Positions 38,031 to 41,926 of a DNA stretch of 42,071 nucleotides are shown here, in pieces. Within the stretch, counting starts at the first letter, position 1. Every line of letters begins with the position of its first letter. The notes under the pieces are model-generated. The model was not told where the DNA came from. It was given only the letters and a program-made list of their open reading frames with translations, and made no database searches. The DNA lies in the NCBI GenBank assembly GCA_030044555.1, contig JASHVN010000280.1:1-42071 (forward strand), written 5' to 3'. The DNA is from Xanthobacteraceae bacterium (GTDB taxonomy: Bacteria; Pseudomonadota; Alphaproteobacteria; Rhizobiales; Xanthobacteraceae). The translations under genes and the position numbers were made by a program.

Positions 38031-38798
38031 TCACGCCTCGATGAGGTCGACGACCGTCGAGATGCCCTTGGCGTAGGCTGAGCTTGGATCCATGACGGCG
38101 AACAAGCCGCCGCTGCCGAGGCGGATTAGCTCCTCGCTCATCGGCAGTACGGCAGCGACCGGGCTGCGATACGTGCTGGCGATGCGATCGGCAATCTGTC
38201 GGAAGTCGAACGCCGGCAGCACCTTGTTCACCACCAGAAGGAGCTGCGGGACTTCCAGGCGGCGCGCCAGCTCCAGCGTGACCGCAGTGCCCTGATAGTC
38301 CTGGTGGTCTGGCCGCAGGATCAGGACAAGCGTGTCGGAAATAGCAATCGACAGCAGCGTTTCTTCGTTGACCCCGGGATGCGTGTCGATCAACAGATAA
38401 TCGAGGGCGAGGCGTTCCCCGAGATCGCGGAAGCCGTCGTTCAACATACTGACATCGTAGCCTTCTTTGAGAATGCGAGCGATCTCGCCGGTACGGATGC
38501 TCGACGGGATCAGAAGCACGGCGCCGCCATTTGCTGTGCTCTGCTGTGCCGAGAGAGCATGCGAGACGTCCACCGCCGTGTCCTCAATGCGGCAATGGCC
38601 CCAAAGATAATCGTTCAGCGTATGCCGCAGGCGCTGCGGATCGACCTGAAACAGCACGTGGATACCGGGCGACTGAATGTCGGTGTCGACGATGGCCACC
38701 CGCTTGCCGCGCTGCGCGAGCAAGGCGGCAACATTTGCGGTCGTATTCGATTTGCCGGTTCCGCCGCGATAGGAATGGGTCGATACGATGCGGGTCAT
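38031..38798 (-). CDS. MinD/ParA-family P-loop ATPase with an atypical Walker A
   Basis: 255 aa. SYRGGTGKSNTTANVAALLAQRGKRVAIVDTDIQSPG has the deviant Walker A layout, but RGG replaces the signature KGG. Walker B-like YLLIDTHPG. 4-nt overlap with the upstream gene. Confidence 0.8.
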   Translation of the reverse strand: MTRIVSTHSYRGGTGKSNTTANVAALLAQRGKRVAIVDTDIQSPGIHVLFQVDPQRLRHTLNDYLWGHCRIEDTAVDVSHALSAQQSTANGGAVLLIPSSIRTGEIARILKEGYDVSMLNDGFRDLGERLALDYLLIDTHPGVNEETLLSIAISDTLVLILRPDHQDYQGTAVTLELARRLEVPQLLLVVNKVLPAFDFRQIADRIASTYRSPVAAVLPMSEELIRLGSGGLFAVMDPSSAYAKGISTVVDLIEA

Positions 38799-39238
38799 TT
38801 GCGGGACTGCGCTTGCGTGCGATGGCGCGCGCGCATGTCGCGGGCGCGGGCCTGGAGCGTCTGAAAGTAGTCGGTTTCCGCGATCTCCGAAACTTCGCGA
38901 TCTTTGCGGGCTTGATCGATGGTGATCTGCATCCGTTGCACCTGATCGCGCAGCACGGTGTTTTCCGAGGCGAGCTTGCGTTGCGCCTCTTCGAGCTGGC
39001 GATTGGTCTCGCCCAATTTCTCGAGCAGCTGGCTCAAATGAAATTCGCGGCCCTCCACCTGGACGGCCATGCTGGCAAAGGCCTCCGCCAGCTCGCGCAC
39101 CACGTCCGGAGCATCGGTTGATTCCGCCAGGGCGAACAGTTCATCGAGCTCAGCGTAGTTGCCGCGCGCCACGCGTTCGCAGACGCTTTTCAGGGCGAGG
39201 AGAAAACGGCCGGCCTCCATCGCGTCGCGGCCGGTCAA
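38795..39238 (-). CDS. Coiled-coil protein of unknown function (HAMP-like segment plus EIAETDYFQTLQ motif)
   Basis: 147-aa ORF with heptad-rich stretches (LSQLLEKLGETNRQLEEAQRKLASENTVLRDQVQRMQITIDQARKD). Start and stop overlap the STAS and ParA-like genes respectively. Confidence 0.6.
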   Translation of the reverse strand: MTGRDAMEAGRFLLALKSVCERVARGNYAELDELFALAESTDAPDVVRELAEAFASMAVQVEGREFHLSQLLEKLGETNRQLEEAQRKLASENTVLRDQVQRMQITIDQARKDREVSEIAETDYFQTLQARARDMRARHRTQAQSRK

Positions 39239-39552
39239 GCGGAGAGGCGGCTGACCGCCTCGTCGCGCGAATGGAAGATGTCGAGGAAACGCGAGAATCC
39301 GCTAATGTCGAAAACGTCCTTGGTCTGATCGTTGAGCGAGCACAGCACAAGCTGTCCGCCCAATGATTTTATCTGCCTCGCCGCGTGGAGCACAACGCGC
39401 AAGCCGGCGCTGCTAATGTAGTCGACAGCCGTCATATCCAAAAGCAGCCGGTCGGCGCCGGAGGCGATCGATTTCGCTATTTCGCCGTCGAGTGCCGGTC
39501 CACTGGCGCCGTCGATCCGCCCCTCCGGGCACAGGATGCAAATGGCGGTCAT
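39235..39552 (-). CDS. STAS-domain anti-sigma-factor antagonist (SpoIIAA/RsbV-like)
   Basis: Start at the internal ATG 39552 (MTAICILCPEGRIDG...), preceded by a GAGAGGGG RBS. Conserved ...LLLDMTAVDYISSAGLRVVLHA..., including the phosphorylatable Ser position. Confidence 0.82.
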   Translation of the reverse strand: MTAICILCPEGRIDGASGPALDGEIAKSIASGADRLLLDMTAVDYISSAGLRVVLHAARQIKSLGGQLVLCSLNDQTKDVFDISGFSRFLDIFHSRDEAVSRLSA

Positions 39553-39565
39553 GACACTACCCCTC

Positions 39566-41926
39566 TCAACCACGCGGACTATTCCATTCCGGCGCCGTCC
39601 AGCCGGCTGCCGTAGCGCCGCGCTCCGCAATCGCCGCGAGCGCGCGGCCAAGGCTGCCGATCGGCTGCGCACTTTTGCTCAGGATCAGCATCGTCCGCTC
39701 GGCCAGAAACTTCCGCTCGTCTTCGGTCAATATCTTGGCGGTCAGTACGACGATCGGGATTTCGGTCCAATCTTCGCGCTCGCGGATGCGGTCGAGGAAT
39801 TCGAAGCCGTCGACCTCCGTCATCATCAGGTCGAGCAGGATCAGCGCCGGTGCCGGGTTGTCGCGCAGCCAATCCAGCGCGGCGCGCCCGTGCACGGCTT
39901 CTGCCACCTTCAGGCCCGTGCTTTCCACTGTGCGGCGGACGACCGTGCGGATTTCCGGATCGTCGTCGACCACCAGCACGACACGATCACCTTGCGCGTG
40001 TGAGAACTGCTCGATCACCGTAATCAGGCGGCCGCGATCGATCGGTTTGGTCATGTAATCCGAAGCGCCAAGCGAATATCCGAGATTGCGGTCGTCGACG
40101 ATCGTCAGCATGATCACCGGAATGTGCTGCAGCGCCGCGTCCGACTTCATCACGCCGAGCAGAGACCAGCCGTCCATTTTCGGCATCATCACGTCGAGCG
40201 TCACGACGTCGATCGGCGTACGCCGCATTTGTTCGAGCGCTTCCAGACCGTCGCGGGCGAACAGCACGCTATAGCCTTCCTTGGTCAGGATAGCCGACAG
40301 CAGATCGTGAACGTCCGGGTCGTCATCGACGACAAGGACCGTGAGTGCGTTGCCGTTATCGGGGCGCTGGCGTGCTTTGCGCGCGGTCTGGCCCGCGCTC
40401 GGTGCGCTGTGCACCGTCTGATCGGGCAGCACGATCGTGAACGTCGAACCTTTCCCCGGCACGCTCGTGACGTTGATCGTTCCGCCCAGCATGGTGCAGA
40501 AATGCTTGGTGATGGTGAGGCCGAGCCCGGTGCCGCCGAAATGACGCGTGGTCGAGGAGTCGGCCTGCGCAAAGGCCTGGAACAGCCGCCCAATCTGCTC
40601 TTCCGTCATGCCGATGCCGCTATCGGATACTGTGAAGCGCACGCCGTCCGGGCAATCAGGATCCGCCAAGCGCGTCAGCGTCAATTTCACCTCGCCTTGC
40701 TTGGTGAATTTTGCGCCGTTGCTGAGCAGGTTGATGAGGCTCTGCTTGAGCTTGGTGAGGTCGGTGCGCAGCGAGCCGATGCTGGGCGGGCAGTCGATCG
40801 CGAGGTGATTGCCGTTTTTGGCCATCAGCGGCTCGACGATAGTGCTGACGTCCTCGATAAGACGGGGCAGGAATACCTGCTCAAGATACACATCCATCCG
40901 GCCGGCCTCGATCTTCGACAGGTCGAGGATGTCGTTGATGATGCCGAGCAGATGCTTGCCGGCGCCTTTGATTTTCTGCAGGTCGCTGACGCTCGGGGCG
41001 TCGCCACGGTCGTTGGCGTCTTCGATCAGGATTTCACTGTAGCCGATGATGGCATTGAGCGGCGTACGCAGCTCGTGGCTCATATTGGCCAGGAAGTCGG
41101 ATTTGGTGCGGTTCGCCTGCTCGGCCACGCGGCGGGCGTCCTGGACGGCAGCCTCCGCCTGCTTGCGCACGGTGATGTCGTTGATCCAAGAGATCAGGAC
41201 CGGCTGGCCGTCGTATTCGGTCTGTTTCCAGGACAGCAGCGACCAGAACGTACCGCCGTCGGGACGGCGATTTTGCACCTCGGCATTGAGCAACTCGCCC
41301 TCGCGGCGGAAAATTTCGAGCAGGCGATCACGCTGCGAGGGATCGGCATAAAGCTCGCGCACGTTTTTCGGCATTTGCTCCTTGGTCACACCATAGAGTT
41401 CATCGTGCCGGCGGTTGGTGTAGAGCAACTGTCCGCCAGAGCCGACGATACCGACGGCGACGGGGCTCGAGTCGAGCAGGTTGCGGATCTGCAGCGCGGA
41501 ACGCCGTAGCGCCTCGCGCTCGGCATCCTCTTCCGTGAGATCCTCGATCGTCACCATGTGGGCGCCGTCGACGGCGCGGCAGGCGAGGCCGAGCAGCCGG
41601 CCAGACGGCGTCTTCTGCGTGAACTTCACTCCGTCGGTGACGATTTGCGTCATGAGATGGTCGGCGGCAGTCGCGCTTTCTCCCTCGCCGTAGTCGCCGC
41701 GGGCGACCAAATGGGCAATGAGTTCGCGCGCAGAACGTCCCGCCGCGACATTCGCGACGTCGAGTTCCAGCAGGCGGGCGGCTTCGCTGTTCGCCGCTTG
41801 CAGCGCCAGGTTGCGATCGATCATGAGGGCGCCGAAAGGCAGTCCCTCCAGTACCAGGCGTAGGAGATTGGCAGAAGCATCGGCATTTGCCGAGCCGCCC
41901 GCTGTGGCCGCCAGAGCCTCGATCAT
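39566..41926 (-). CDS. Hybrid sensor histidine kinase (PAS-PAS-HisKA-HATPase_c-REC-REC)
   Basis: 786 aa. Two PAS-like segments, H-box FLANMSHELRTPLNAI, N/G boxes (LLSNGAKFT, DSGIGM, GGTGLGL), then two receivers (VLVVDDDPDV...TLDVMMPKMDGW and VLVVDDDPEI...LLDLMMTEVDGF). Confidence 0.9.
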   Translation of the reverse strand: MIEALAATAGGSANADASANLLRLVLEGLPFGALMIDRNLALQAANSEAARLLELDVANVAAGRSARELIAHLVARGDYGEGESATAADHLMTQIVTDGVKFTQKTPSGRLLGLACRAVDGAHMVTIEDLTEEDAEREALRRSALQIRNLLDSSPVAVGIVGSGGQLLYTNRRHDELYGVTKEQMPKNVRELYADPSQRDRLLEIFRREGELLNAEVQNRRPDGGTFWSLLSWKQTEYDGQPVLISWINDITVRKQAEAAVQDARRVAEQANRTKSDFLANMSHELRTPLNAIIGYSEILIEDANDRGDAPSVSDLQKIKGAGKHLLGIINDILDLSKIEAGRMDVYLEQVFLPRLIEDVSTIVEPLMAKNGNHLAIDCPPSIGSLRTDLTKLKQSLINLLSNGAKFTKQGEVKLTLTRLADPDCPDGVRFTVSDSGIGMTEEQIGRLFQAFAQADSSTTRHFGGTGLGLTITKHFCTMLGGTINVTSVPGKGSTFTIVLPDQTVHSAPSAGQTARKARQRPDNGNALTVLVVDDDPDVHDLLSAILTKEGYSVLFARDGLEALEQMRRTPIDVVTLDVMMPKMDGWSLLGVMKSDAALQHIPVIMLTIVDDRNLGYSLGASDYMTKPIDRGRLITVIEQFSHAQGDRVVLVVDDDPEIRTVVRRTVESTGLKVAEAVHGRAALDWLRDNPAPALILLDLMMTEVDGFEFLDRIREREDWTEIPIVVLTAKILTEDERKFLAERTMLILSKSAQPIGSLGRALAAIAERGATAAGWTAPEWNSPRG

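Follow-up and report, generated by a model that had tools for sequence, protein, structure and literature searches.

The window analysed here is a 42,071-nt stretch from a Xanthobacteraceae bacterium (contig JASHVN010000280.1), and our subject is a pair of adjacent genes within it, which encode a coiled-coil protein of 147 amino acids (CC147) and an ATPase of the MinD/ParA fold and which lie beside a type VI secretion system (T6SS) gene cluster. The pair closes a stretch of four genes, the other two of which encode a hybrid histidine kinase and a STAS protein (Table 1). A first-pass annotation of the window had described four tightly coupled genes on the minus strand, and all four open reading frames (ORFs) were confirmed at the positions given in the table. 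The 13-nt gap that it reported lies between the stop codon of the kinase gene and the ATG of the STAS gene, with GAGGGG inside. It also listed two 4-nt overlaps: the one joining CC147 to the ATPase gene (ATGA) stands, and the one joining STAS to CC147 exists only if the TTG at 39238 is the start codon of CC147. An in-frame ATG at 39220 would give a protein of 141 amino acids and a 14-nt spacer after the STAS gene, and a CC147 homologue with 95% identity (P0121) is 141 amino acids long, equal to this ATG-start version. The STAS and CC147 genes are tightly coupled whichever start of CC147 is true.

The G+C content at third codon positions is 0.75-0.79 in these genes, and the database holds thousands of homologues of the ATPase and 65 of CC147; the four ORFs are therefore taken to be real genes and not chance reading frames. 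A scan for promoters and terminators of the four-gene operon gave nothing above chance. The DNA sequencing runs that contain the stretch are peat and soil metagenomes, which makes its source an uncultured alphaproteobacterium of peat or soil, and no RNA runs containing it were found. Judged by the ATPase, the nearest named relatives are Bosea and Methylovirgula (73-75% identity).

The ATPase and its coiled-coil partner

The AlphaFold2 (AF2) model of the ATPase (predicted local distance difference test, pLDDT, 79; predicted TM-score 0.84) was matched best by Foldseek to the MinD of A. fulgidus (1hyq, TM-score 0.88), and Aquifex MinD (4v03), Soj, FleN and FlhG were all matched with a Foldseek probability of 1.00. 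A profile built from close homologues likewise retrieved archaeal and Aquifex MinD, FleN, Mrp/NBP35 and Soj from the PDB. The Walker A' motif IVDTDI aligns with IVDADI of MinD and the Walker B motif LLIDTHPG with LLLDAPAG, both being intact, and residues D38, D40 and D138 are invariant, as are the tyrosines Y10, Y64, Y134 and Y168. According to the model, then, the ATPase is an alpha-beta protein of the MinD/ParA fold with an intact catalytic core. The modelled chain ends with the last helix of the fold (241-254), with no MinD-type membrane-targeting helix or other additional amphipathic helix at the C-terminus. All curated NCBIfam models for MinD, ParA and the like score far below their cut-offs (minD_arch, 76.2 against 201.75; minD_bact, 48.1 against 212.9), and the best NCBIfam match is the KGGVGR-variant family NF047398, with 84 bits against a cut-off of 90.

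The ATPase reads THSYRGGTGKSNTT, and its P-loop, SYRGGTGKS, lies within SYRGGTGKSNTT at residues 9-20, with an arginine at the position of the signature lysine and a tyrosine at that of the first Walker glycine. In the profile alignment to the MinD structures 1hyq and 4v03 the arginine takes the column of the signature lysine and the tyrosine that of the glycine before it. The arginine for lysine seen at first pass is thus real, but it is not a local replacement, being the norm of a large clade (201 of 201 close relatives). These relatives comprise the 120 best database homologues (64-96% identity) and 81 readable genomic loci, all of which carry S[YF]RGGTGKS, including loci from Cyanobacteria, Chloroflexi and Solirubrobacterales at 57-64% identity. 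The genomic loci analysed throughout are the roughly 80 best-scoring of at least 581, and ORF calls in those of high G+C content are crude. An exhaustive search of representatives at 50% identity yielded 398 clusters with E <= 1e-30. In the top-scoring 150 of these representatives arginine dominates the signature position, with a few carrying K, Q, H or G, and more distant members read HSFR[RHP]G[TVA]GK[ST], having lost the first glycine too. The presence of the arginine in every one of the 120 homologues and 81 loci, together with its dominance among the 150 representatives, argues that it is under selection. Judged by these comparisons, the arginine-bearing ATPases are a large, highly conserved clade without a name that spans Alphaproteobacteria, Cyanobacteria, Chloroflexi and Actinobacteria. 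The first-pass annotation had said that its reading would fall if RGG were the norm in a well-characterised subfamily; it is indeed the norm, but of a clade that is uncharacterised and unnamed.

CC147 had been described as mostly coiled coil with a motif, and its AF2 model (pLDDT 92) is in agreement, being almost fully helical (helices 3-24, 28-38, 45-120, which spans 76 residues, and 123-146). The motif, EIAETDYFQTLQ at residues 118-129, spans a break at E121-T122, after which the Arg-rich terminal helix 123-146 begins. The conserved tail of the protein, ITIDQARKDREVSEIAETDYFQTLQARARDMR, follows the consensus ...EID...REVxEIxETDYFQxLQxRA...R and has a helix-break-helix form. No meaningful match to CC147 was obtained in Pfam, NCBIfam, PADLOC, a PDB sequence search or Foldseek. 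However, when CC147 residues 36-144 were aligned by hhalign to the second HAMP helix (AS2) and tail of receptors from other phyla, whose HAMP domains are recognised by Pfam, the match had a probability of 98.9% and an E value of 3.5e-17. On the strength of this alignment we regard CC147 as a receptor reduced to its cytoplasmic signalling helix, that is, to the second HAMP helix, a long stalk and the conserved tail. Relative to the other-phyla receptors, the alphaproteobacterial stalk carries an insertion of 28 residues (four heptads) in the alignment, and the AF2 model shows N-terminal helices (3-24 and 28-38) unlike a typical first HAMP helix (AS1).

A hidden Markov model of the tail detected a motif-bearing ORF together with the ATPase in 48 of 48 alphaproteobacterial and 32 of 37 other loci, usually directly upstream; most of the five other-phyla loci that lack the motif have scant upstream sequence. 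A search with the motif profile also returned dozens of apparent tail-only proteins of 42-104 amino acids (P0186-P0304). These were rejected as truncated gene calls, because they start at a conserved Met of HAMP AS2 and their contigs are short or frameshifted.

Outside the alphaproteobacteria, the ATPase gene is directly preceded by one for a receptor that ends in a CC147-type tail. Such receptors have the architecture Tll0287-HAMP in Nostoc (L052), dCache-HAMP with a duplicated tail in L055 and L064, HAMP-GAF in Anaerolineales (L049), and transmembrane sensor-HAMP in a metagenome-assembled genome (MAG) of Solirubrobacterales (L067). Elsewhere the ATPase is the C-terminal domain of a fusion protein, preceded by REC (P0312), REC-PAS (P0392), HisKA-REC (P0319), HisKA (P0323, P0334), dCache-HAMP (P0317), PAS (P0349, P0416) or HTH-PAS (P0357). 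In P0312, P0317, P0319 and P0323 the HAMP AS2 helix and an EID...ETDYF tail stand immediately N-terminal of the ATPase domain, and the PAS-ATPase fusions have a divergent form of the tail in the same place. Such fusions argue for joint action of tail and ATPase, with the ATPase as the domain that receives or transmits the signal.

The HisKA-type helices of P0319, P0323 and P0334 bear an H-box (RHELCxPIN) and are joined to the ATPase in proteins that have no HATPase_c domain; that the P-loop domain stands in here for the catalytic part of a histidine kinase seems to us very unlikely. In P0322 and P0360 a winged helix-turn-helix-like (wHTH-like) domain is fused to the C-terminus of the ATPase, and a profile of this extension matches proteins of 110-158 amino acids encoded beside Chloroflexi ATPase genes (E 1e-5 to 1e-13). 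Fusions of the ATPase to TIR, DnaJ and LamG domains also exist. P0318 joins a TIR domain to a related ATPase that retains the lysine (SFKGGTGKT). A role as a defence system, which TIR-ATPase fusions might bring to mind, was considered and set aside, PADLOC returning only weak P-loop matches to the candidate system PDC-M28B.

Genomic context of the pair

The first-pass annotation had tentatively linked the four genes to the adjacent T6SS, and the link recurs far beyond the window. The comparison took in 50 loci of Alphaproteobacteria, spread over more than 10 genera (Bosea, Methylovirgula, Phreatobacter, Azorhizobium, Ancylobacter, Aquabacter, Rhizobium, Agrobacterium, Pseudorhizobium, Roseibium/Labrenzia, Stellaceae and unnamed MAGs). 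Within 10 kb of the pair, 44 of these loci have one or more T6SS core genes and 39 have at least two. Such conserved residence in T6SS clusters is one of the marks of a T6SS-associated accessory gene. The same distance holds for the other neighbours counted here. A second Ser/Thr kinase of the T6SS cluster, STK2, was the most faithful companion of the ATPase (48/50), and a sigma54 activator was present in 43/50; none of these features was found in any of the 37 loci from other phyla. The usual order is CC147 -> ATPase converging on STK2 <- sigma54 activator <- clpV <- hcp. The pair is thus widespread in phyla without T6SS, and within the alphaproteobacteria the link holds. Of the six alphaproteobacterial loci without T6SS genes, four lie on truncated contigs on which DUF2169, STK2 or the sigma54 activator can still be seen. 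Two loci from Aquabacter (L021, L043) and a further one (L044) keep STK2 with no clear T6SS genes within 10 kb, L044 carrying STAS/RsbW in addition, and these three are candidates for natural uncoupled cases.

The position of the pair within T6SS clusters varies between lineages. It forms the 3' end of a tssJKLM-tagF-pppA-ppkA string in the Azorhizobium/Xanthobacter/Aquabacter group, the order in Azorhizobium doebereinerae (L084) being fha-tssJ-K-L-M-tagF-pppA-ppkA-CC-ATPase, all in one direction, with a 5-nt gap and a 4-nt overlap. In Rhizobium jaguaris (L001) it lies between tssA/tssB and hcp-clpV, preceded by genes for a dCache-HAMP-PP2C protein, an RsbW-like protein and a STAS-like protein. 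An RsbW-STAS gene pair is divergent from CC147-ATPase in Bosea, the order is STAS-RsbW-CC-ATPase in Rhizobium sp. SL86, and neither STAS nor RsbW is found near the pair in Roseibium and the Azorhizobium group. Overall, genes for STAS and an RsbW-type kinase occur within 10 kb in about 22 alphaproteobacterial loci, with STAS on either strand, and in none of the other-phyla loci.

The operon of four genes does not hold as a module: only CC147 and the ATPase are invariant, and the kinase is absent from nearly all relatives, a kinase match of at least 300 amino acids being found in 0 of the 50 alphaproteobacterial loci. In two loci with 85-87% identity (L087 and L088), kinase-REC-STAS sequences are followed by an 8-kb DUF2169/PAAR-like/DUF3540/TPR block on the other strand and then by CC-ATPase. 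Since the kinase-REC-STAS part stands 8 kb from the pair there, the four-gene arrangement of the window is an input unit that has come to lie locally beside the invariant pair, through rearrangement of the same parts. The inputs vary: a hybrid kinase here, STAS and an RsbW-type kinase in Bosea and Rhizobium, a dCache-HAMP-PP2C protein in R. jaguaris, and none in Azorhizobium and Roseibium. By this comparison the hybrid kinase is a lineage-specific input and STAS a variable input component. Of the partner-switch module proposed at first pass, what stands is that STAS and RsbW-type parts recur and that an RsbW-type gene is present in the window; what does not is their constancy, as they are optional.

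The T6SS cluster of the window is complete (Table 1), comprising tssA, B, C, E, F, G, fha, tssJ, K, L, M, tagF, pppA, ppkA, vgrG, hcp and clpV, so that the description of the four genes as standing beside a T6SS was correct. The hcp and clpV genes open the conserved block hcp-clpV-sigma54 activator-STK2. Residues 1-175 of STK2 have no match to a known domain, and the STK2 and ATPase genes are convergent, with 52 nt separating their stop codons. A sigma54-type promoter-like site stands about 63 nt upstream of hcp, and it is by its position that this putative site is suggestive. The genes for the RsbW-type kinase and the stand-alone receiver sit between tssA and an effector block of DUF2169-pentapeptide, pentapeptide, DUF3540 and TPR genes that is divergent from tssA. 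The RsbW-type protein is the probable kinase partner of STAS, whose gene lies at the opposite end of the cluster at a distance of 28 kb, and the receiver is a candidate phospho-acceptor of the hybrid kinase. Two further ORFs, one of 118 amino acids between vgrG and hcp, which has equivalents of 115-119 amino acids in L083-L085, and one of 319 amino acids in the effector block, neither with a family match, might encode effectors, immunity proteins or adaptors. For the PP2C phosphatase, the longest ORF (27300-28298) overlaps tagF (26864-27577) by about 280 nt (27300-27577), and its true start probably lies further downstream.

Table 1. Positions of the pair, of its neighbours in the window and of corresponding genes in related loci
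Sequence	Feature	Position	Strand	Basis
Window	Hybrid histidine kinase, 786 aa, PAS-PAS-HisKA-HATPase_c-REC-REC, cytoplasmic	41926..39566	-	Pfam
Window	STAS protein, anti-sigma-antagonist type, 105 aa from ATG; usual serine context DYISSAG	39552..39235	-	Pfam STAS 70 bits, TIGR00377 79.5 bits
Window	CC147, soluble HAMP-derived adaptor, 147 aa from TTG; alternative ATG at 39220	38795..39238	-	AF2, hhalign
Window	MinD/ParA-fold ATPase, 255 aa	38031..38798	-	Pfam AAA_31/ParA/CbiA, NCBIfam
Window	T6SS core and threonine-phosphorylation genes: tssA (starts 11321) through tssM, tagF, PP2C (pppA), ppkA, vgrG	11321..30858	+	Pfam
Window	hcp	31441-31953	+	Pfam T6SS_HCP
Window	clpV/tssH (hcp and clpV together 31441..34928)	32199-34928	+	Translation and synteny
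Window	GAF-sigma54-interaction AAA+-HTH_8 enhancer-binding protein, VasH-like (sigma54 activator)	34925..36631	+	Pfam
Window	STK2, second Ser/Thr kinase of the cluster besides ppkA, 445 aa	36641..37978	+	Pfam Pkinase
Window	Sigma54-type promoter-like site TGGCACGCCGGTTGCG	31363..31378	+	Pattern search, 1 mismatch
Window	RsbW/SpoIIAB-type serine kinase, 136 aa	10126..10536	+	Pfam HATPase_c_2 80 bits; jackhmmer
Window	Stand-alone receiver (REC), 144 aa	10632..11066	+	Pfam Response_reg 89.7 bits
Window	118-aa ORF	30878-31234	+	
Window	319-aa ORF	4112-5071	-	No family match
Window	Weaker sigma54-type matches, in the gap before the 319-aa gene	5251-5266 and 5453-5468	-	
L087	Kinase-REC-STAS part	1-1211		
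L087	CC-ATPase part	9569-10768		
L088	Kinase-REC-STAS part	2-990		
L088	CC-ATPase part	9283-10487		
L052	Cyanobacterial operon	5205-8459		
L060	Cyanobacterial operon	3371-8268		
L055	Cyanobacterial operons	3260-7986 and 14204-18110		

In other phyla the pair keeps different company. The cyanobacterial operon encodes a receptor, the ATPase, a DUF7005 protein and a cyclic nucleotide (cNMP)-binding protein, and often lies beside an ATP-binding cassette (ABC) exporter with a C39 peptidase, HlyD, a radical-SAM/SPASM enzyme and tandem genes of about 79 amino acids. These loci resemble a cluster for export of ribosomally synthesised and post-translationally modified peptides (RiPPs) or bacteriocins, another context of an inter-bacterial weapon. 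Eight Chloroflexi loci (L056, L069, L070, L071, L074, L079, L081, L082) each have two ATPase paralogues, and each ATPase is followed by a protein of 110-158 amino acids homologous to the wHTH-like extension of the ATPase fusions of about 380 amino acids; genes for HAMP-GAF-tail proteins, adenylate cyclase, an extracytoplasmic function (ECF) sigma factor and a PrsW protease are nearby. No match to the wHTH-like partner was found in the window or in any alphaproteobacterial locus. Because the cyanobacterial and Chloroflexi gene neighbours differ, the downstream effector appears to differ by lineage, and the wHTH-like domain fused to or standing beside the ATPase in Chloroflexi and other lineages suggests that outputs elsewhere are regulatory.

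A working model and its alternatives

We cautiously favour a reading in which CC147 and the ATPase constitute a receptor-coupled nucleotide switch that regulates the T6SS in alphaproteobacteria. The parts of this reading are not equally firm. That the two proteins are one functional unit is very probable, and a T6SS-related role of the pair in alphaproteobacteria can be considered likely. That the pair is a signalling switch rather than a positioning machine is the better-founded expectation, held with reasonable though lesser confidence: a signal-transduction switch is favoured over a dedicated cargo-positioning ATPase because in phyla without T6SS, where the pair is widespread, it follows HAMP receptors or is joined in one protein to REC, PAS, HisKA or HAMP inputs. 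It is rather doubtful, in turn, that the sigma54 activator is the direct target of the ATPase.

According to this model, the ATPase would cycle between a monomer and an ATP-bound sandwich dimer, in which Arg11 would reach across the dimer interface in trans, as the signature lysine does in MinD/ParA. The tail of CC147 would most likely dock on the ATPase and set its dimer or hydrolysis state, in analogy to MinE, ParB and FlrA. In other phyla the tail would take its input from sensor domains, periplasmic or cytoplasmic; the alphaproteobacterial protein would have lost its sensor and would depend for input on proteins encoded nearby. In the window, the conformation of CC147 may thus be set by the PAS hybrid kinase together with the stand-alone receiver, and by the STAS/RsbW-type switch. 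One nucleotide state of the ATPase would in turn act on the T6SS. The likeliest route, for which FleN/FlhG is the precedent, is that the ATP-bound dimer binds the GAF-sigma54 activator that drives hcp-clpV, and a second route might lead through STK2 into the Fha/TagF firing checkpoint.

Several observations weigh against this model. The evidence for docking of the tail on the ATPase consists of gene adjacency and fusion, both read from sequence. The Pfam HAMP model (PF00672) gives CC147 15.5 bits, against a cut-off of 25. The ATPase gene converges on the block of STK2 and the activator and is not co-transcribed with it, and the count of sigma54-type sites across the window is not above chance. 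To our knowledge cyanobacteria have no sigma54, so that the sigma54 activator is not a universal target. The loci are the best-scoring of at least 581, and frequencies for the whole clade may differ. Finally, a spatial role such as that of FlhG or TadZ is compatible with all of the data.

The last point is the substance of an alternative, raised by the first-pass annotation, in which a gradient or landmark of the ATPase places or counts T6SS membrane complexes or baseplates; CC147 would be the adaptor for the cargo, gated by the kinase and STAS. The MinD/ParA fold of the ATPase agrees with it, as do the tight embedding of the pair in T6SS clusters and the nature of the partner, a small coiled-coil protein like McdB or ParP; moreover, the relatives TadZ/CpaE, BcsQ, VirC1 and FlhG place secretion machines and flagella (PMC11407121). 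However, the ATPase has no MinD-type membrane-targeting helix, its partner is a HAMP-derived signalling stub and not a cargo-binding protein, and its domain also occurs in fusions with REC, PAS, HisKA, HAMP and wHTH-like domains and in large numbers in phyla that have no T6SS. These traits speak against positioning, and we regard it as unlikely, though FlhG both signals and positions. It is more improbable still that the pair is a general signalling module whose target is unrelated to T6SS and which merely travels with the T6SS island in alphaproteobacteria. Such an explanation would account for the pair without T6SS in Cyanobacteria, Chloroflexi and Actinobacteria, for L021, L043 and L044, and for the fact that most loci show convergence on the neighbours and no shared operon. 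Yet synteny survives extensive rearrangement in more than 10 genera, in one group the pair ends the very string of genes that runs from tssJ to ppkA, and most of the T6SS-negative loci are truncated contigs with DUF2169, STK2 or the activator.

Two further explanations are highly improbable. The ATPase might be a P-loop kinase or phosphotransferase akin to the bacterial tyrosine (BY) kinases, activated by the tail and acting on STAS, CC147, a HisKA-type helix or a T6SS protein. BY-kinases such as CapB and Wzc do share the fold, their activator being the cytoplasmic tail of a membrane partner, CapA/CapB chimeras are among the PDB sequence matches (E about 1e-6), the HisKA fusions P0323, P0334 and P0319 have no HATPase_c, and the four invariant tyrosines would suit such an enzyme; but the ATPase has no C-terminal tyrosine cluster, its best matches are MinD, FleN and Soj and not BY-kinases, and the locus already encodes an RsbW-type, two Hanks-type and histidine kinases. 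Just as remote is the idea that the four genes are an ordinary RsbV/RsbW anti-sigma cascade for an alternative sigma factor, with the ATPase as a passenger. The STAS and RsbW-type genes, and PP2C phosphatases in related loci, would fit, but neither the window nor the alphaproteobacterial loci that were annotated yielded a sigma-factor gene, and STAS/RsbW are missing in roughly half of the alphaproteobacterial and in all other-phyla loci, whereas CC147 and the ATPase are invariant.

Beyond the receptor-coupled switch in alphaproteobacteria, one may tentatively speculate, taking the following as a single proposal, that HS[YF]R ATPases and HAMP-ETDYF tails make up a so far unrecognised, phylum-spanning class of receptor outputs with a P-loop dimer switch as the transmitter. 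In this class the P-loop switch would stand in for a histidine-kinase core, a cyclase or the tip of a methyl-accepting chemotaxis protein (MCP), and would serve lineage-specific effectors, namely a wHTH-like protein in Chloroflexi, DUF7005 and cNMP-binding proteins beside peptide export in cyanobacteria, and T6SS in alphaproteobacteria. For the latter it would amount to a new accessory checkpoint for when, and perhaps where, T6SS is made or fired.

Significance and relation to known systems

The first-pass annotation did not recognise the system as a described one, and full-text literature searches, in which subscription journals were thinly covered, yielded no description either. No report was found of the clade, the tail motif, DUF7005 or a MinD/ParA-type gene in T6SS clusters, which does not prove absence, nor any account of an arginine at the signature position as in this clade. 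The pair is not mentioned in papers on rhizobial T6SS (R. etli Mim1 and S. fredii USDA257), and MinD, ParA, STAS and HAMP are all missing from the entries of a 2026 review of T6SS accessory factors. No T6SS cargo is listed in a 2024 review of ParA/MinD proteins (PMC11407121).

These findings may be of interest in several fields. Little is understood of how Rhizobiales and other alphaproteobacteria of the environment regulate their T6SS, and here a conserved two-gene module lies at the junction of the PpkA/PppA/Fha/TagF checkpoint, a second kinase and a sigma54 activator. For the biology of ParA/MinD proteins, a large clade with a systematic arginine is a natural experiment on the signature residue, and it offers a MinD-like ATPase that appears to be wired directly to transmembrane sensors. 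For signal transduction, the data suggest a transmitter module that is unnamed in domain censuses.

The closest solved folds are those of the MinD-MinE and ParA-ParB systems, namely archaeal and Aquifex MinD (1hyq, 4v02/4v03), with which the ATPase shares Walker A' and B and the presence of a dedicated small partner encoded next door. MinD, however, has a glycine at the first Walker position where the ATPase has Tyr or Phe, and the partner here is a HAMP-type signalling helix. Membership of MinD proper or of a MinCDE system was rejected, since the models score below cut-off, the window holds no minC or minE, the membrane-targeting helix is missing and the lysine is an arginine; ParABS and the BY-kinases were ruled out on motif, partner and context. 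NF047398 is similar in being another variant-P-loop branch of the superfamily, but membership was rejected as the score falls short of the cut-off (84 versus 90 bits) and as NF047398 alters the lysine of GK[ST], whereas the present P-loop keeps GKS and alters the signature lysine.

The window also holds a hybrid kinase, a stand-alone REC, an RsbW-type kinase, PP2C and STAS, the set of parts that makes up the Pseudomonas Hsb pathway (HptB-HsbR-HsbA). As in partner switches of the RsbU/V/W type, there is a STAS protein with a conserved serine and a GHKL serine kinase, both present in the window; the parts here differ in being split over both ends of the cluster and optional in relatives, and searches turned up neither an Hpt domain nor a sigma or anti-sigma factor. 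We know of no described partner switch that uses a MinD-like ATPase as its output, and here the ATPase is the invariant output.

TadZ couples a receiver-like domain to an ATPase. TadZ/CpaE, BcsQ and VirC1 resemble the present protein as MinD/ParA-family ATPases inside secretion-system clusters (PMC11407121), but they belong to other clades, act as polar landmarks and serve other machines (Tad pili, cellulose synthase and a type IV secretion system substrate). McdA is a ParA-type ATPase without the signature lysine, in which Lys151 supplies the trans-acting positive charge (PMC6582323). It thus shares with this ATPase the absence of that lysine and a small coiled-coil partner; McdA, however, has Ser/Thr at the signature position and a distant Lys, whereas this clade keeps a basic arginine in place. 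Membership of McdA/McdB was rejected on this arginine, on the partner, which is upstream and unrelated, and on the absence of carboxysome genes from the window.

The ATP-bound dimers of FlhG/FleN bind the sigma54 activators FlrA/FleQ, that of FlhG restraining its activator, and a 'partner-switching' model has been described (PMC11407121). The ATPase resembles FleN/FlhG in its MinD-type fold, the Foldseek matches including 5j1j, 4rz3, 7ejw and 8p53, the last two of which are ATPase-activator structures, and in having a sigma54 activator as a conserved neighbour (43 of the 50 alphaproteobacterial loci). FleN and FlhG differ in that they keep the signature lysine and reside in flagellar loci, FlhG having in addition a C-terminal membrane helix and an N-terminal activator motif; the ATPase described here has the arginine, no membrane helix, a HAMP-derived partner and a T6SS context, and its identity to them is only 16-19%. 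What is new here is the signature residue, the partner class and the association of a proposed ParA/MinD-type switch.

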